A DNA stretch of 64,000 nucleotides from the IMG/VR virus record IMGVR_UViG_3300013382_000005, one strand, 5' to 3'. This stretch comes from an uncultured virus (IMG/VR IMGVR_UViG_3300013382_000005). Its lineage: Duplodnaviria > Heunggongvirae > Uroviricota > Caudoviricetes. Shown piece by piece: positions 39,059-49,394 of this stretch; the first letter of the stretch is position 1, and every line of letters starts with the position of its first letter. The notes below the pieces were generated by a model. The model did not search any database and was not told the origin of the DNA. It saw only the letters and a program-made list of their open reading frames with translations. The position numbers and the translations under genes were made by a program.

Positions 39059-39526
39059 TCAGAGGACTTTCTCTGCTTCATTACGAAGAGTTTCTACAAT
39101 AAATCTTGCTGTAGAAAGAATAGACTGAGGAGTATCAGGCTGCGGTCTCACACCAGGAACTGCTGACATTTCTCCGAACTGAGCCTCAATAGACTGGAAC
39201 AAAGGAAGTCTGTATTCTTCTGGCACACCCTTCTCCTCGAGAAACGGATCCAGCTTCTCACGAGCCTTAAATACATCATAGAAATTATTATCATTGATGT
39301 ATACATTATGAAGAAGAGCTGCCATTAAAAGAATATCAACATAGACAAGATGAGTATTCTTGTCACGTATGAGTCCTCTGTTTTCGAGAAGCTTATAGCA
39401 CCAATGAGCAACATCGTTTGCTATACTCTTCTTTTCATCAGAGACATTCTCCATTTCATAGATTTCGTTAATCTGATTACGGAGATTTTCGTTATTGATT
39501 AGATCAATAGCATTTGTATCAAACAT
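39059..39526 (-). CDS. HD-domain-like protein (degenerate)
   Basis: DILLMAALLHNV, with HN in place of HD. Confidence 0.5.
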   Translation of the reverse strand: MFDTNAIDLINNENLRNQINEIYEMENVSDEKKSIANDVAHWCYKLLENRGLIRDKNTHLVYVDILLMAALLHNVYINDNNFYDVFKAREKLDPFLEEKGVPEEYRLPLFQSIEAQFGEMSAVPGVRPQPDTPQSILSTARFIVETLRNEAEKVL

Positions 39527-39812
39527 AATTTATTTTCCTCTCAAGTTGATTTGTGTAGTCAAAAGACTTAAACCGAATCTGTCTGTTTTTAAAATCATTT
39601 ATTTCTGGACGAATAACCATTTTATTGACAAGATCAGATTTGTGCAGACGAGTATTGCACAAATTTATTTTTGTGCTTTCATCTCTACACTTAATACATT
39701 CAGAGTCATAATCATTATAGTTTCTACAACCATAACAAATAGGACACTGAATATAATTAACGCATTTAATTTTAAAACCTCTGACGTCATGAGGTGTTTT
39801 TTGTTTTTGCAT
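39519..39812 (-). CDS. Cys-rich hypothetical protein
   Basis: True start is probably ATG 39812 (RBS AGGAG), because the ORF-track start falls inside the promoter. CPICYGC...CIKC. Confidence 0.6.
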   Translation of the reverse strand: MQKQKTPHDVRGFKIKCVNYIQCPICYGCRNYNDYDSECIKCRDESTKINLCNTRLHKSDLVNKMVIRPEINDFKNRQIRFKSFDYTNQLERKINYV

Positions 39813-39911
39813 TTTAAGTATTCTCCTAAAAACAAAAAACGAGCATAAATATACGCTCGCTATCTTCTTAGAATAGGATTTATCTTTAGTGAAAATATAA
39901 GTTATGTTTTT

Positions 39912-39940
39912 ATTATACCACAATAAAATCATTTTGTCAA
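39912..39940 (-). promoter_or_regulatory. Consensus sigmaA promoter with extended -10
   Basis: TTGACA, 17-nt spacer ending in TGG, TATAAT; A-rich UP element. Confidence 0.85.
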
Positions 39941-39971
39941 GTATTTTTTAAAATAATTTTATTATAGTTGA

Positions 39972-40045
39972 TAATGACAGCGGGATTCGAACCCGCAATA
40001 AATGGTTTTTGAGACCATCTCGTATACCTATTCCGACATGTCATC
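39972..40045 (-). tRNA. tRNA-Leu(CAA) with a short variable loop
   Basis: Acceptor stem GATGACA/TGTCATT; D arm TCGGAATAGGTATACGA; anticodon arm ATGGT-CTCAAAA-ACCAT; T arm GCGGG-TTCGAAT-CCCGC; discriminator A; no encoded CCA. Confidence 0.85.
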
Positions 40046-40051
40046 ATAAAA

Positions 40052-40070
40052 TGGGCGTATAAAACGCCCA
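40052..40070 (-). terminator. Hairpin closing the TnpB RNA region
   Basis: TGGGCGT-tttat-ACGCCCA followed by TTTT on the minus strand. Confidence 0.55.
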
Positions 40071-40080
40071 AAAGCACAAT

Positions 40081-40203
40081 GTTAATTACTTATTATATTT
40101 AAATCAGGAGATTCCAATTGCTTACTATCTACGATAAATTGCACCAATTGTTTATTATATCAGGCTTGTATACCAATTGTTTATCAAATAATCAATTAGT
40201 TAT
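40081..40203 (-). CRISPR. Non-canonical mini array: 13-16 nt repeats with 16-19 nt intervals, downstream of tnpB
   Basis: Repeats ATAAACAATTGGT (40184-40172 and 40155-40143), GTAAGCAATTGGA (40125-40113), and degenerate ATAAGTAATTAAC (40093-40081) and ATAACTAATTGAT (40203-40191). The period is 29-32 nt for the last four copies. Confidence 0.55.
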
Positions 40204-40366
40204 AATATCGTAATAATAAACTTATAACTAGAGTATTTATATTCTAATAAAAATAAATAGAATCGAAGTTCAATCGATAAATCTAAAATCTATCTCCTTC
40301 GCCTCTGTTATATCATCGGACGATTGGCAACGCCCGCTCATTATCCAGAATATATCCGGATAATAT
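40191..40366 (-). ncRNA. Putative omega-RNA (reRNA) scaffold of TnpB
   Basis: Structured non-coding region 3' of tnpB: hairpin ATTATCCGGA/TCTGGATAAT, GCGGGCGTTGCCAATCGTCCG segment, terminal TAGTTATAA...TTATAACTA stem. Confidence 0.6.
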
Positions 40367-41611
40367 TTATTTTTCAAATACTGGGTTCTTTTCTCCAGAG
40401 ATCCATTTAGTACCTAACAATTGAATATTCATAGCACCAACCCTATCGTCATTAGAATGATAACCACAACTACATATATATTCATGTGTATCATGGTGCC
40501 TATGGTCTTTATTTATTGTACCACATTTAGGACATCTCTGAGAAGTATATTGTGCCTTAACCTTAATAACTTCTGATTGATTCTCGTGAGCTTTATAAGT
40601 CAAAAACTGTTCCAATTGATAAAAACTCCACGAACGAATATTATTATTAAGTTCTTTTGATTTATTTATATTATCAAAAGACACGCCAGTTAAATCCTCC
40701 AGAACAAATAAAGTATTTGGACCATATGTCTGTACGAGTGTCTTAGAGATCCGATGATTAACATCAGACATCCAACGGTTCTCTCGCCCGGACAGCCTCT
40801 TTAATACTTTTTTAGCTGCTCTGGTATTTTTAGATTGTATCTGTCTTCTTGTTTCTAAAAATTTATGTCTCTTATATGCGATCTGTTTACCTGATATAAA
40901 AGTCGTCTTCTTATGGTCGTCATAAATAGTTGCCAAGAATCGTAATCCTCGATCTATGCCAACAATATGACTAACATTTTCTTTGGTAAACGCATCTATA
41001 TTCTTTGTCACAGGGATATGTAAATACCATATCTTCTTAAGCCTTACTAATTTGCCTGTACCAAGCGTCCATTCATCATTTAAATAAGAGCCAAAATGCT
41101 TCTTTTCAAAAGACATTTTAGCTCTTTTATCTAATGTAGTAAGACTGATCATTGTGCCATTATCTAAAAGACTATAATTGCTTCCATGTATTAAATCAGC
41201 TTGTAATCTTGCAAAATATATCGGCTTTTCAATCCATTCAAGTGTACGCTTTTCGTATTGCCATTTACCATTTTCATCTTTATATTTATATGGCTTTTGT
41301 GCTAATTGAGATTGCAGTGTCTTATATCTTGCTGTAACAGTCCTGAATGTTGATTGAACCATTTGCGAATTAAGATTAAATTTACTTCGTATATCATAAT
41401 ACAAAAGCTTATTTAACTTCAATGGCCTTAATTCAAAACCATTGTTAAATATATATTCAGATACATAATTACATACCTTTCTATATTCTTCGCACATTTC
41501 TTCAAAACTACGAATCTGATCTGCATCTGGATACAATCTAAGCTTTATAGTTTTAGTAAAAGACATCTTTGCAGGTGCCTCTGTTTCATTATTTATTTCT
41601 TCTACGTTCAT
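40367..41611 (-). CDS. tnpB: TnpB RNA-guided endonuclease (IS200/IS605 family)
   Basis: N-terminal TIKLRLYP HTH; RuvC-I GIDRG; RuvC-II VLEDL; WSFYQLEQFLTYKA; YTSQRCPKCG...CSCG zinc finger; RuvC-III NDDRVGAMNI. No tnpA nearby. Confidence 0.93.
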   Translation of the reverse strand: MNVEEINNETEAPAKMSFTKTIKLRLYPDADQIRSFEEMCEEYRKVCNYVSEYIFNNGFELRPLKLNKLLYYDIRSKFNLNSQMVQSTFRTVTARYKTLQSQLAQKPYKYKDENGKWQYEKRTLEWIEKPIYFARLQADLIHGSNYSLLDNGTMISLTTLDKRAKMSFEKKHFGSYLNDEWTLGTGKLVRLKKIWYLHIPVTKNIDAFTKENVSHIVGIDRGLRFLATIYDDHKKTTFISGKQIAYKRHKFLETRRQIQSKNTRAAKKVLKRLSGRENRWMSDVNHRISKTLVQTYGPNTLFVLEDLTGVSFDNINKSKELNNNIRSWSFYQLEQFLTYKAHENQSEVIKVKAQYTSQRCPKCGTINKDHRHHDTHEYICSCGYHSNDDRVGAMNIQLLGTKWISGEKNPVFEK

Positions 41612-44841: not shown

Positions 44842-45504
44842 TTACCTCCAGACTATTTTATTTGTATTATTTAAAGCCAATTCGCTTTGTATTGATTTTA
44901 GATATTCAACAGTAGTATATAAACAATCTTGAATGTCAAGAATTGTATATACTCTCATGCCTTGATTAAATGCATCATCGATAAGAGTTAAAACTATATC
45001 TATTGCATTTAATCCGCACTTCTTAAATTGATCTGTATATGTTTTAATAAGATATTTGATTGCACCAATTTCTTTATCTTTAATTATAATGTCAGAATCA
45101 ATATTAAAAACGCCGCAAAAATAATTCAATACATCTTCTTCGCTATATTTAATTTTCATTTCTATAGCGTTATTAGAGCTTATAACATCTCCAGAAAATA
45201 TGTCTACAACATTTGCATTATTGCTTAAATGCAATTCACTATGAAGATAATATACATTCTTTTCGAGCAATGAATCCTTCCATAAAGAATCAGATAGATC
45301 TTCAAAAGTTAAATGTTCATTATCAATTACATTGTCAATAGATGCTTCATATTCTATTGTATTTATAATATCTTTTTCGTCGATATTACCATCTATAAGA
45401 TATTGAATTACTTTATTTGTTTGAATCAGATTATCATCTTCATGATCAGGAACACATCCTAATAACTCATAAAAATAATTAACCAAGTTGGAATTCTTGC
45501 GCAT
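44842..45504 (-). CDS. Hypothetical replication-operon protein
   Basis: 220 aa, between dnaE and the primase. Confidence 0.6.
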   Translation of the reverse strand: MRKNSNLVNYFYELLGCVPDHEDDNLIQTNKVIQYLIDGNIDEKDIINTIEYEASIDNVIDNEHLTFEDLSDSLWKDSLLEKNVYYLHSELHLSNNANVVDIFSGDVISSNNAIEMKIKYSEEDVLNYFCGVFNIDSDIIIKDKEIGAIKYLIKTYTDQFKKCGLNAIDIVLTLIDDAFNQGMRVYTILDIQDCLYTTVEYLKSIQSELALNNTNKIVWR

Positions 45505-47479
45505 AACTCTCTTTTTCTAAATTAATTGAATTTACAATAAAGGTATTTTGGTCAGATTTCTTACCAGATATAGAATATATATTATTCGTATTATATAACG
45601 ATACAGTACTTCTATATTTTGAATATGTACTGGAGAATATAAGACATCTTATAATAGAGTTTTCAGAGTTAAAATCTAAAAATGCCATCATTTTACCTTT
45701 TTTATCAGGTCTCTCCGTAAGTTTATCTATTGAACCATATAAAGTTACTGTGTCACCAATAGCAGTATTTTCAAAAGTGGATCTATAAGTCAGATTTAAA
45801 CCAAGATACTCAGTTTCATATTGCATACAATTCATTCTGGTATATGGTCTCATAGACATAATTGTCAAAGGATCTGTATCTGGCAAAGCTTTAATTTCTG
45901 ACAGCTTCCCAATAAGCTTATGCCTATCTTTCTGTTCAAAATCAAAACATCCAGCAAGAATCAAATTACTTAAAACATTCTTCTTAACAAGTCTATGATC
46001 TGTTTTATTATAAAAATCTATAAATGAACTATATGGTTTATGATTTAAGATTTCAGGGATTGCGGCATTACCTACTCCCTTAATTGCACCTATACCAAAA
46101 TATATTGTATCATCTTTAATAGTAAAGAGCCTATTAGATATATTAATATCAGGAGCTTTAACTTCTATATCCATGTCTCTTGCTATATTTACATATCTAT
46201 AGATTTTATCCTGATCATCTTGCATACTAAGTAATGCAGTCATAAATTGAATAGGATAATGAGTCTTAAGAAATGCAGTTATATAACCGAGATATGCATA
46301 ACACATAGCATGAGATTTGTTAAAGCAGTATTCTGCGAAGCCCATAAGCAGATTAAAGAAGTTATCCATCTGCTCATATGTATATCCACGCTTTAATGCA
46401 CCATCAATCTCATCACCATATTGCCTTTTAGGATCATACCAAGGCATTGAGTTATCATCATGCCAACCTTCTGGTCCTTCCTGATTTATCTTACCATAAA
46501 TCATCATTCTACGTAGCATAGCAAGTTTATCTTTCTTCTTTTTACCAATAATTTTTCTTACTATACTATCTGACTGATTAGCATTAAAACCACAGACTTT
46601 AACACTAATAGCCATTACTTGTTCCTGATAAATGATTGCGCCGTAAGTATCCTGAACTATATCTAAAGTTTTAGGAAGCGGCTCAATTAACTCTTTCTTA
46701 CCATTCTTTGTATCATTATACTGTTCATCAAGATGTGCTTGAAGAGGCCCTGGTCTACAAATAGCATTTAATGCACCGATATCATTTATATTATCTGGTT
46801 GCATATCTCCTATAGTATGCTTAAACAGATCTGATTCAAGCTGAAACAATCCATCAGTTTTCTTATCTCTAATAAGAGAATAAGTATCTGGATCTGCCAT
46901 CGAATTAACTATATTATAAACATTATAATAGTTATATTTAGGATTTATTAATTGCATCGAAAGATCAATAACGTCTAAGTTACGAAGCCCTAATATGTCG
47001 AACTTGACAAAATTAGAGCTTTCAAGTGTTGGTCCTTCGTACAAAGTGACGGCAGTACCATCAACATATCTCATCGGTACATAGTCATANNNNNNNNNNT
47101 CAAGGACTCCAGATGCATGTACACCTAAATTACGAGCATTACCCTCAAATTTTCTTGCATATTCAAATAATTTAGGATACTTATTTTCAAGTTCTTTATA
47201 TCGCGCATAATTGTCCTGATCTATTTTATCTTCAGAATCTTTCCATGCATCTATATCTTTAAACATAAGATCTGGTTTATCAGATATCTCATCTATCTGT
47301 TTTGTCAGCGCATTAACTTCACTTACAGGTATTTCAAAATACCTGGCCACATCCTTAAGACCAGACTTAATACCAAGAGTTGTAATAGTTCCTATAGACG
47401 CAACAAAATCTATACCATAATAATCTTGAAGATACTTAATAACATCCTGACGTCTTGTGTATTGGAAGTCGAGATCGAT
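45479..47479 (-). CDS. dnaE: DNA polymerase III alpha (DnaE), exon 2
   Basis: Begins IDLDFQYTRRQDVIKYL; contains GVHASG, KFDILGL, GLFQLES, RPGP, IIYQEQVM, FNKSHA, HhH and OB fold. Includes the N-gap at 47090-47099. Confidence 0.93.
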   Translation of the reverse strand: MDLDFQYTRRQDVIKYLQDYYGIDFVASIGTITTLGIKSGLKDVARYFEIPVSEVNALTKQIDEISDKPDLMFKDIDAWKDSEDKIDQDNYARYKELENKYPKLFEYARKFEGNARNLGVHASGVLXXXXYDYVPMRYVDGTAVTLYEGPTLESSNFVKFDILGLRNLDVIDLSMQLINPKYNYYNVYNIVNSMADPDTYSLIRDKKTDGLFQLESDLFKHTIGDMQPDNINDIGALNAICRPGPLQAHLDEQYNDTKNGKKELIEPLPKTLDIVQDTYGAIIYQEQVMAISVKVCGFNANQSDSIVRKIIGKKKKDKLAMLRRMMIYGKINQEGPEGWHDDNSMPWYDPKRQYGDEIDGALKRGYTYEQMDNFFNLLMGFAEYCFNKSHAMCYAYLGYITAFLKTHYPIQFMTALLSMQDDQDKIYRYVNIARDMDIEVKAPDINISNRLFTIKDDTIYFGIGAIKGVGNAAIPEILNHKPYSSFIDFYNKTDHRLVKKNVLSNLILAGCFDFEQKDRHKLIGKLSEIKALPDTDPLTIMSMRPYTRMNCMQYETEYLGLNLTYRSTFENTAIGDTVTLYGSIDKLTERPDKKGKMMAFLDFNSENSIIRCLIFSSTYSKYRSTVSLYNTNNIYSISGKKSDQNTFIVNSINLEKESYAQEFQLG

Positions 47480-47879
47480 CTTTTCTCGCTCTATGTCACC
47501 ATAGAGAATAGACTATATCTTAACCACCAGCATACAAATTATATTTTGTATCTGAGAGGTTTGTCATGCTTCGGGTAATACACCACCCCTACGTTCCTTT
47601 GAACTAGTCGTTGAACTTTTCATGTATTATATATATAATACATGCTTAGCTGCTGATTAACTATTATAAAACCATGCTTAGCTGCTGATTAACTATTATA
47701 AAAATACTTAATGTTTCCACATATATCAAATCAATTATTTTTTCTACTTTCGTGACCATTTCTATTTACAATATTATGGTTGATTGATTATTAAGCTTTC
47801 CCAGCAATTCATGACACTTAACACCCAGTGTTCCCACTAGGCTCGACTGTGTTTTCATAATTATATAATTATGAATCCA
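47480..47879 (-). ncRNA. Group I self-splicing intron (400 nt, no homing endonuclease) in dnaE
   Basis: The 5' exon ends in U (GAU) and the intron ends in G. Core elements: P AATTGCTGGGAA, Q AATCAGCAG, R TTCAACGACTA, S AAGATATAGTCT; P3 TGTCATG/CATGACA. Splicing restores SSPPD-IDLDF in frame. Confidence 0.92.
47641..47703. repeat. 32-bp tandem duplication inside the intron
   Basis: CATGCTTAGCTGCTGATTAACTATTATAAAA(C) occurs twice. Confidence 0.9.
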
Positions 47880-49394
47880 ATCTGGAGGTGAGCTTCTATC
47901 TTCTGTCAAAAATCTTTCGAATGATAAATTATATTCCATCGGATCTATATTCGAAGTTATTTGTAACATATAAAGACAAAGGCTTCCTGCTGCTGATCCT
48001 CTTCCTGGACCAACTGCAATTTTATTGCGTTTACAATAATTTACATAATTATAAACGCACAGAAAATAAGGTACAAAGCCCTTTTTCTTAATGACTCTTA
48101 TTTCTTTATAAAGTCTCTTAAAATACTTATTTATATCTATATCTGGATGGTTCTTCTTATATTCAAATAATCCGCTTAAACATAAATGCTCAAAATAAGA
48201 AGTTCTTGTATATCCTTCTGGCACTTTAGTTTCTGGAAACAAAGGTATTGATGAACCAAGTTTAATATCTTCTATTTGATCAGCTATATAATTAGTATTC
48301 GCAAGAGCTGCTTTAACAGTATCCATATAATGATTCATTATATTTTCATCAGTAGAAAACATATCGTTACTACACATTGTTTCATACTGTATCGTAAAAT
48401 AATGAATCATCTCTTCATAGCTCCGAACCCAATAATCATTAGAATAAACCATGTTATTCTTAGCATCGTAAACATCCGTATCTTCATCTTCAGAAGAGGC
48501 GTTTTTAGGAACATAATTTATTGTGCGCCCCATACCCATATTAACTAATACGGCATGATCTGCATGATCAGACTGCATAGCATAATGAATATCATTGGTC
48601 GCAATCATCTTAATATTATGCTCTTTAGCATACTTCATCAAGAAGAAATTCGTAAGATGCTGTTTAGTTATATTTAACGGCTGAATCTCAAGATAAAAAT
48701 CATCACCAAACAACTCATGGAAGTCTTTTATAGTAGATATGGCCTTACCATAATTACCGTTTATAATCATCTGTGCAAAATACGATCCTACACAGGCAGT
48801 ACTACATATAATTCCTTCATGATATTTCCTAAGAAGATTCAGGTCGCAATGATATCTACCATTATATGTACAATACTTAGCAGACTCAGATTGAATCTTA
48901 ACAAGATTCTTCCATCCTGTCTGATTCTTTGCAATCAATATAAGATGATAACTCTTTGTATTATACTCATAGTCACTTAAAAGTTCGTGAAGATCTTTCA
49001 TTGGAACTTTTTTCTTCTTACGTCTTTCTCCAGGTTTCCCTTTCTTTTTTAATGGTTGTTCTAAATCAAGGTAAGCAGCATCAAAATCAAAACCATTTTC
49101 AGGCCCTAATTTTCTAGCTTGTTCTTTCGCCCACTCTAATCTGTCTTCGGCAGATTTAGATAAGATAGACATATCTGGAGTATAATAAGCTTCATATCCA
49201 AGAATGGGTTTTATACCAGCATCTTCACATGCACTTTTAAACTGAGGTATACCTAACAAATGATTATGGTCAGTCAGAGCCATAGCTGTCATGCCAAGTT
49301 CTTTTGCTCTTGCTACAAGTTTTGTAGGAGAGCTATATCCATCCAGCAAAGAATAAGAAGAATGAACATGGAGATGCGTAAAATTCTTATCCAT
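47880..49394 (-). CDS. dnaE: DNA polymerase III alpha (DnaE), exon 1 (PHP domain)
   Basis: HLHVHSSYSLLDG, ALTDH, TNDIHY, GPGRGSAAGSL, FERFL...SSPPD. Confidence 0.95.

Follow-up and report, generated by a model that had tools for sequence, protein, structure and literature searches.

A jumbo-phage TnpB locus with candidate tandem duplicates of the omega-RNA 3' end

Introduction

Can the guide RNA of a transposon nuclease gain several alternative ends, and with them several guides, while its protein partner stays a TnpB? The question is raised by a locus of the uncultured virus IMGVR_UViG_3300013382_000005 (Caudoviricetes), in which a tnpB gene is followed by an omega-RNA scaffold and then by a run of short repeats. 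The locus was analysed in a stretch of 64,000 nucleotides (nt), hereafter the window, which is part of a 235-kb metagenome contig (L004). An earlier interpretation made from the letters alone (the sequence-only reading) had taken the repeats for a small CRISPR-like multi-guide array, and the locus for a candidate TnpB-to-Cas12 intermediate.

Why would repeats at this place matter? In the omega-RNA of ISDra2, according to the structural account in PMC10097598, the loop of the first hairpin forms a pseudoknot with the bases just 5' of the guide, and the pseudoknot strand together with the 3' strand of the terminal stem makes up a region resembling a CRISPR RNA (crRNA). Cas12 arrays are modelled as duplicated or split copies of this crRNA-like end (PMC10097598, PMC10691335); in the model of Altae-Tran et al. 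(2023), as outlined in PMC10691335, arrays arise de novo through serial duplication of omega-RNA segments. The analysis reported here supports an anatomy of this kind for the phage locus; that the repeats function as several guides is, in our judgement, doubtful.

The scaffold and the repeats

Downstream of the tnpB stop codon lie, in this order, a hairpin, a second hairpin with GCCAAT in its loop, more of the scaffold, five repeats (R0 to R4), a terminator-like hairpin and a transfer RNA (tRNA) gene (Table 1). A covariance model of the scaffold detects one copy in the window and one in the corresponding locus of a sister phage, a 206-kb viral contig with identical gene order and a 90% identical TnpB; tandem complete scaffolds are found in neither. 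In the window the model places the scaffold 3' end on R0, which has a hairpin of its own (40230-40222 with 40205-40197), and in the sister phage it likewise ends on ATTGAT; R0 thus appears to be the inherited scaffold end, and the other copies would be additions. Successive repeats are separated by 6, 16, 17 and 19 nt, and exact copies of the 13-mer ATAAACAATTGGT number only two in 64 kb, those of R1 and R2; R0, which is degenerate, and R4 are weaker copies. Tandem Repeats Finder does not report the array.

What do the repeats copy? Two kinds of complementarity to the scaffold meet in them. First, the repeat bases that precede the pseudoknot strand in R1 to R4 are complementary to GTTTAT(TAT): at 40158-40150, where R2 starts, lies ATAATAAAC, to which the scaffold segment GTTTATTAT is exactly reverse-complementary, and the stem can form eight pairs with R1, nine with R2 and nine each with R3 and R4, two of them G.U in either case. 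At the third unit the complementarity extends to 16 pairs with 40221-40206. Second, the repeat ends match the hairpin loop: GCCAAT has an internal mismatch with ATTGAT of R0, and pairs at all six positions with ATTGGT of R1 and R2 and with ATTGGC of RA and RB, two modules of the sister phage. Duplex energies with the loop are -8.2, -7.8 and -5.5 kcal/mol for R1, R2 and R3 and -2.1 and -2.6 kcal/mol for R0 and R4; in the sister phage they are -8.8 (RA), -12.8 (RB), -4.6 (R1') and -2.1 kcal/mol (R0). These pairings support the view that each repeat is a duplicated omega-RNA 3' end, that is, a putative crRNA-like module composed of the 3' strand of the last stem and the pseudoknot strand. The sequence-only reading had listed the repeats with their intervals, the reverse complement at 40221-40213, variant copies that keep G.U pairs, a possible pairing of GCCAAU (40328-40323) with the repeat end AUUGGU, and a hairpin like a terminator behind the repeats, and on each of these points it was accurate; its proposal that a repeat is a copied omega-RNA 3' end able to complete the last stem and pseudoknot is supported by homology to bacterial omega-RNAs, a re-tuned loop and an array in the sister phage.

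The phage loop, GCCAAT, would derive from one of the GTCAAY type; the comparison supports a change of the pseudoknot loop that would suit the new copies and not the ancestral end R0. With R0 no longer fully matched by the loop, the scaffold's working 3' end would have shifted into the array.

Could such modules arise by chance? Three of them, each defined as a 6-base-pair stem strand with at least five of six pseudoknot pairs, fall within 139 nt; none of 5000 dinucleotide shuffles contains three and 11 contain two, a test that is not fully independent because its criteria were partly taken from the tested sequence. Across the whole window 39 stem-plus-pseudoknot sites occur on the two strands, including the three of the array. 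The pairing of scaffold segment 40224-40204 with S2/R3 reaches -15.3 kcal/mol, equalled by 2 of 2000 shuffles, and in minimum-free-energy folds the GTTTATTAT stem is closed with R2 and with R3.

Table 1. Features of the locus, all read on the minus strand; R, repeat module; S, interval.
Feature	Position	Strand	Remarks
tnpB	40367..41611	minus	414 amino acids; RuvC D220/E305/D389 intact
Omega-RNA scaffold	40191..40349	minus	covariance model of 29 relatives, 34.1 bits, E 2.8e-8, model 1-133 of 133
First scaffold hairpin in model match	40317..40336	minus	6-bp stem CGGGCG/CGTCCG, 8-nt loop TTGCCAAT
Pseudoknot acceptor GCCAAT	40323..40328	minus	within loop TTGCCAAT
Last-stem 5' strand, GTTTATTAT	40213..40221	minus	extended form 40221-40206 pairs with 40136-40120
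R0, ATAACTAATTGAT	40191..40203	minus	putative ancestral scaffold end; ATTGAT mismatches present loop
R1, ATAAACAATTGGT	40172..40184	minus	predicted stem strand and pseudoknot strand
S1, 16-nt interval	40156..40171	minus	variable among close variants
R2, ATAATAAACAATTGGT	40143..40158	minus	predicted 9-bp stem strand and pseudoknot strand; 13-mer ATAAACAATTGGT at 40155-40143
S2, 17-nt interval	40126..40142	minus	no change listed in close variants; 3' half extends complementarity of unit 3 to scaffold
R3, ATAGTAAGCAATTGGA	40113..40128	minus	predicted stem strand with two G.U pairs, 5/6 pseudoknot pairs; 13-nt copy GTAAGCAATTGGA at 40125-40113
S3, 19-nt interval	40094..40112	minus	differs between close variants by substitutions and by deletions totalling 5 nt
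R4, ATAATAAGTAATTAAC	40081..40096	minus	decayed pseudoknot strand; 13-nt copy ATAAGTAATTAAC at 40093-40081
Terminator-like hairpin and T run	40052..40070	minus	intrinsic type, kept in sister phage
tRNA-Leu(CAA)	39970..40046	minus	directly 3' of terminator; sole Rfam match in 39500-41000

The pseudoknot in bacterial relatives

If the repeats copy an omega-RNA end, what does that end look like in relatives? The comparison covered 79 metagenome and 18 viral loci. Copies of the bacterial type carry a conserved scaffold of about 130 nt after the stop codon, beyond which the flanks diverge from copy to copy, and the scaffold closes with a GC-rich hairpin whose loop is often TTTA, followed by one or two further bases and finally by GTTGAC or a variant of it. 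This final hexamer changes together with the loop of the first hairpin, the loop/hexamer combinations being GTCAAC/GTTGAC, GTCAGC/GCTGAC, GTCAAT with ATTGAT or ATTGAC, and GTCAGT/ACTGAC. A hexamer that pairs fully with the loop is present in 64 of 65 distinct bacterial-type scaffolds, in 63 of them 17-38 nt past an ACAAGC anchor. In an alignment of 29 scaffolds, pairing within the pseudoknot helix reaches 100%, with changes on both sides at two of its six pairs, against 19-55% pairing in slid controls; the figure of 100% is partly built in, since scaffold ends were defined by their ability to pair. The independent part of this evidence is the fixed position of the hexamer at the boundary between scaffold and flank.

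The extra modules are peculiar to the phage lineage. When 57 distinct bacterial scaffolds were examined, the pseudoknot hexamer by itself recurred in nine, and a second stem-plus-pseudoknot module within 150 nt was found in none of the 46 that could be evaluated. Aligning the DNA downstream of homologs, a check that the sequence-only reading had proposed, has yielded a covarying pseudoknot and, in the phages only, extra modules.

The relatives also differ among themselves. In loci L010-L098 the bacterial copies of the insertion sequence (IS) begin about 170 nt 5' of tnpB, right after TTCAT (once TGCAT), and their left-end hairpin is similar to the right-end hairpin; TTCAT is the likely transposon-associated motif (TAM) of the family. 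The idea that the phage repeats are themselves TAMs was rejected, because TTCAT, the presumed TAM of the relatives, is absent from the array. Three loci (L050, L058 and L059) lack the omega-RNA scaffold and continue in unrelated sequence from about 7 nt past the tnpB stop, as truncated right ends; L025 has about 90 nt of extra GC-rich sequence between the stop and the first scaffold hairpin; and L062 holds a second complete scaffold (L062:1042-1171) about 1.3 kb 5' of tnpB, which is the end of an adjacent element or else a free-standing guide-RNA cassette.

The array in the sister phage and in close variants

How old is the array, and how does it change? The sister phage, represented by three records with identical sequence across this region, has a single tnpB copy at the same locus as in the window and an array with its own set of copies. 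Its layout consists of a conserved scaffold, about 115 nt that align to the window at the repeats only, and then the conserved terminator and tRNA. Between the two tnpB genes the ratio of nonsynonymous to synonymous divergence (dN/dS) is 0.17, with a synonymous divergence (dS) of 0.30 and a proportion of synonymous differences (pS) of 0.25. The low dN/dS indicates that the protein is maintained by purifying selection; at a dS of 0.30 neutral DNA should still align, which implies that the array stretch has turned over faster, through insertions, deletions or the gain and loss of units.

The best global alignment pairs R0 with R0, R1 with R1', R3 with RA and R4 with RB, the intact last module of the sister phage, and leaves R2 of the window with no clear partner; whether the counterpart of RA is R2 or R3 is uncertain, and the window appears to have one unit more. 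Aligned as units, the repeats give a consensus of about 19-20 nt, and S1, S3 and an interval of the sister phage share YCTGAT. The partial relatedness of the spacers makes them look like diverged duplicates and not like acquired sequences. Judging from these alignments, the array predates the split of the two phages and expanded through duplication in tandem and not by taking up foreign spacers; the units read as diverged tandem duplicates of a 19-20-nt repeat, with no sign of spacer acquisition.

Closer variants come from contigs of four sequencing runs, two of them labelled pig gut metagenome; the runs listed for the locus number 18 from 8 studies, all with shares of 0.2 or below and with no RNA run among them. 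In contigs of all four runs the listed changes concentrate in S1 and S3. The one bridging contig of run X3 differs from the window by 34 substitutions, of which 26 are listed, and 11 gap letters, all listed, so that counts by region are lower bounds: at least seven substitutions and six indel letters fall in S1 and S3 (35 nt), at least three substitutions and one indel letter, inserted at the R1/S1 boundary, in R0-R4 (65 nt), at least three substitutions and no indel letters in the scaffold (163 nt), and none of the listed substitutions and no indel letters in S2 (17 nt). Pairing survives both substitutions in R1: C40179 to T turns a G-C pair of the stem into G.U, and T40172 to C turns a G.U pair of the pseudoknot into G-C. 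In another haplotype the loop base G40328 is an A, which can pair in Watson-Crick fashion with the T that ends R2. No change in R2 or R3 is among those listed. Conserved repeats with variable spacers, the pattern by which the sequence-only reading was to be judged, are thus found at S1 and S3, where the repeats are kept while the intervals vary; S2, conserved like a repeat, does not follow it.

Scans of the sequence collection added few relatives of the locus. A repeat-gap-repeat pattern gave no match; the scaffold, terminator, upstream-open-reading-frame and tRNA stretches, scanned separately, each gave the sister contig only; and the pattern of the GCCAAT loop gave the sister contig and one chance match among viral contigs and 48 matches among genome_contigs, none adjoining a TnpB relative. 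The collection scans recovered neither a tnpB-less allele nor a third deep lineage.

The nuclease

Is the protein still a TnpB? Pfam assigns it OrfB_IS605 (PF01385) and Cas12f1-like_TNB (PF07282), in keeping with the RuvC-like nuclease and C-terminal zinc-ribbon/TNB domain of TnpB. Its residues D220, E305 and D389, invariant across seven relatives and aligned to the RuvC motifs of solved Cas12f and TnpB chains, form the D-E-D triad that the sequence-only reading had described, correctly, as intact. The close bacterial copies, 60-64% identical, are labelled at source as TnpB or transposase of Megasphaera and Pectinatus; relatives 94%, 88%, 72% and 69% identical are present in the protein collection, which holds thousands of relatives overall. 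By sequence comparison the protein is an ordinary TnpB with no Cas12-like additions.

The gene lacks the transposon ends and mobility of an IS200/IS605 element: a left end is absent, the tnpB ATG overlapping the stop of the upstream open reading frame (ORF) in ATGA, and there is a single fixed copy with no TAM-flanked insertion. At 41566-41611 (minus strand), bacterial relatives align from residue 16-18 onward only, which suggests that the true start may be the second ATG (Met16), leaving about 40 nt as a possible remnant of a left end.

One guide or several?

How would the repeats be used? In the explanation that we favour, the scaffold would descend from an IS200/IS605-type element such as Megasphaera-type bacteria carry, its last 16-20 nt would have been duplicated in tandem three to four times downstream of R0, and the pseudoknot loop would then have shifted from the GTCAAY type to GCCAAT, matching the ATTGGT and ATTGGC copies; tnpB would be an immobilized yet intact RNA-guided nuclease gene retained by a jumbo phage. 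Taken as a whole, this explanation is on balance probable, and we hold it with modest conviction. A single transcript would run from tnpB through the scaffold and the array and end at the terminator, and its last stem and pseudoknot could be closed in at least three registers (R1, R2 and R3), each setting a different downstream stretch in guide position. With the loop no longer matching R0, closure of the final stem and of the pseudoknot would fall to a downstream module; relatives have terminal stem-loops of differing size, with loops of 4-20 nt, which makes a long excursion plausible. That tnpB is intact, its scaffold conserved and the loop re-tuned argues for use of at least one module. An omega-RNA of this kind would have three to four alternative scaffold ends, versus the single right-end guide of an IS200/IS605 element. 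That more than one register, and with it more than one guide, is used strikes us as possible and not probable. More tentative still is the idea of an unsplit precursor of a type V CRISPR array, in which several crRNA-like modules would be loaded in alternative registers, or the last module would be made as a separate RNA from a -10 box, giving one nuclease several targets at a stage that models place before the RNA splitting of TranC and Cas12f.

Several observations weigh against use of the array as a set of guides, and some against the favoured explanation as a whole. The spacers are short, 13-16 nt or, with a unit of 19-20 nt, 9-13 nt, and are related to one another through YCTGAT; S2, conserved and itself complementary to the scaffold, looks structural rather than guide-like. 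The sequence-only reading had noticed no exact spacer match within the window, and indeed, with up to three mismatches allowed, neither the window nor the sister loci contained a target other than the spacers themselves; matches in the 206-kb sister genome stay at the level of a reversed-pattern control. Complementarity to the stem is weak in the sister phage (-3.8 to -4.7 kcal/mol), where only RB passes a strict test. In minimum-free-energy folds adjacent repeats can pair with each other through a CAATTG core, the region is AT-rich, so that short pairings arise easily, and the sample amounts to two well-separated haplotypes plus short contig variants. The 3' end of S1 and the start of R2 also form TGATATAAT, an extended -10-like motif (40162-40154) conserved within the array. 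Finally, modules have decayed in a lineage-specific manner, R4 in the window and R1' in the sister phage.

This last observation fits one needed end accompanied by spare copies, which is the main rival explanation, in our view less probable than the favoured one: slippage would have duplicated the scaffold end, a single copy (most likely R2, and RA or RB in the sister phage) would complete the RNA, and the remainder would be neutral leftovers with drifting linkers, leaving one guide per phage. The interrelated spacers agree with it, as does their nearly neutral divergence (S1 has five substitutions in 16 nt, against a pS of 0.25 between the phages), and the R2-type module retains a standard terminal pseudoknot pair in all four observed haplotypes (G.U, G.U, A-U and G-C), which R1 does not. 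Against it, R1 equals R2 over 13 nt, R1, R2 and R3 all retain both pairing parts, R2 and R3 are unchanged among the listed variant changes, and both changes in R1 keep pairing. Moreover, each of the two diverged lineages retains two or more pseudoknot strands that are fully competent.

Might the repeats act in the DNA instead? They could be promoter or operator sites, with CAATTG cores at a spacing of about 30 bp and a TGNTATAAT box, that control the tRNA-Leu gene or a short RNA, the fit to an omega-RNA being coincidental; we regard this as quite improbable. A promoter-like site, TAAACA-18-TATAAT with TG, does lie at 40183-40154, both the sister phage and the variants retain its TGNTATAAT box, CAATTG forms a palindromic core, and the tRNA gene sits right behind the terminator with no promoter of its own. 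The same terminator, however, separates the box from the tRNA, and TGNTATAAT shows no enrichment in the window, where 18 occurrences compare with an expected 14 +/- 3.6, which is why the extended -10 box was rejected as evidence by itself. The repeat motif, for its part, is confined to the array both in the window and in the 206-kb sister genome, and the complementarity of loop and repeat tracks the covarying pseudoknot of the family, including the loop change specific to the phages.

Least probable, by a little, is a system that has already split, in which the -10 box would start a short RNA that comprises the last complete module, R3 in the window and RB in the sister phage, followed by a guide and the terminator, to pair in trans with the scaffold as a crRNA does with a tracrRNA (trans-activating CRISPR RNA): the box lies just 5' of a complete module in both phages, unit 3 has its 16 nt of scaffold complementarity and RB pairs most strongly of all with the pseudoknot loop, but the box is a consensus match only, with no enrichment, and its TATAAT letters are equally accounted for by the stem strand.

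Comparison with known systems

How does the locus compare with systems already described? With canonical TnpB and its omega-RNA (ISDra2 and the Megasphaera-type IS) it shares the protein family, at 60-64% identity to the latter, homology of the scaffold over the full model and a pseudoknot from the loop to the bases next to the guide, as reported for ISDra2 in PMC10097598. It differs from canonical IS200/IS605 loci in that the left end and a TAM-flanked insertion are missing, the copy is single and fixed, and three to four extra tandem 3' modules are present together with a re-tuned loop.

Transposon-CRISPR intermediates named TranC were reportedly described by Jin et al. in Cell in 2025. As characterized in two citing accounts, TranC shares with the phage locus a TnpB-derived nuclease, downstream repeats with short variable segments and an interpretation as a step from transposon to CRISPR (PMC13565253; bioRxiv 10.64898/2026.03.27.714800); in these accounts TranC is already split and its repeats are of full size. 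Its arrays have 3-20 copies of 32-38-bp repeats, with the guide RNA divided into tracrRNA and crRNA (bioRxiv 10.64898/2026.03.27.714800). The phage locus, unlike TranC, has repeats of 13-20 nt, a scaffold joined to the array and no spacer matches. Measured against the regular repeats of about 23-38 bp and unique spacers of type V CRISPR and TranC arrays, its repeats are too short (13-20 nt) and imperfect and its spacers (9-19 nt) are partly related.

Three further systems share traits with it. Omega-RNA arrays, as presented in PMC10691335, likewise have omega-RNA-like repeats adjoining TnpB relatives; there the whole omega-RNA is repeated (more than 60 bp), beside nuclease-dead proteins associated with RpoE, whereas in the phage only the last 16-20 nt are repeated and the nuclease motifs are intact. 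The guide RNA of Cas12f has the same two-part complementarity, repeat:anti-repeat 1 forming the pseudoknot and repeat:anti-repeat 2 stem 5, followed by the guide (PMC10097598, structural description). In Cas12f, however, the tracrRNA is a separate molecule and the CRISPR array is regular, and the phage protein is not a Cas12f. Cas12r-CRISPR of the Thermus Lalka phages is likewise a small type V-like RNA-guided nuclease kept by phages, with a proposed role in conflicts between mobile elements; according to the preprint, it has a true CRISPR array, crRNAs detected by small-RNA sequencing and spacers matching mobile elements (bioRxiv 10.64898/2026.04.20.719267), whereas the repeats described here are no CRISPR array by the usual definition and their spacers gave no target.

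What, then, remains of the TnpB-to-Cas12 intermediate? The part that concerns the RNA gene is supported, a scaffold followed by repeated crRNA-like modules; the part that would place the locus within type V CRISPR does not, since an ordinary TnpB lacking Cas12-like additions restricts the word "intermediate" to an analogy at the level of the RNA gene. The locus looks like the proposed duplication of omega-RNA segments caught in nature, and like an initial move by which a CRISPR-like array could develop in transposon nucleases. A literature search that did not cover the 2021 Science OMEGA and 2025 Cell TranC papers found no account of a scaffold with short tandem copies behind it that comprise its last stem and pseudoknot strands only. 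If the copies are used, they would offer a compact natural scheme by which TnpB could be multiplexed, with a single scaffold and about 30 nt for each added guide, and the first step of array birth would become testable; if they are not, the locus would still be a clear example of such duplications arising and of the pseudoknot loop following them.

Locus and gene neighbourhood

The tnpB gene lies in the replication module of a gut jumbo phage, among genes for a primase, a DnaB-like helicase, a Holliday-junction resolvase and pieces of DNA polymerase III alpha (Pfam, PHROGs). Phages in GenBank give distant matches only: the helicase is only about 30% identical to those of Firmicutes jumbo phages, and the TnpB region has 65% DNA identity to transposases of Lactobacillus phages. 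No Cas family, cas1, cas2 and cas4 included, was found among the 57 non-overlapping ORFs of at least 100 amino acids in the 64-kb window, 50 of which were compared with Pfam and seven with PHROGs only.

Behind the array, the start of tRNA-Leu(CAA) lies a few bases from the T run of the terminator (40046-40052, minus strand), with no promoter of its own between them; its expression would need read-through or the promoter-like box within the array. Downstream of the tRNA and upstream of the next gene is a perfect sigma-70-type promoter (39912-39940, minus strand; TTGACA, 17 nt, TATAAT with TG), which the sister phage keeps. Farther along the module, DNA polymerase III alpha is divided over two ORFs (45479-49394, minus strand): ORF 47766-49394 comprises the PHP domain together with the beginning of the NTPase domain, and ORF 45479-47350 the remaining NTPase domain, the finger and the HHH; the roughly 415 nt between them might represent an intron, what is left of an intein, or an inserted element.

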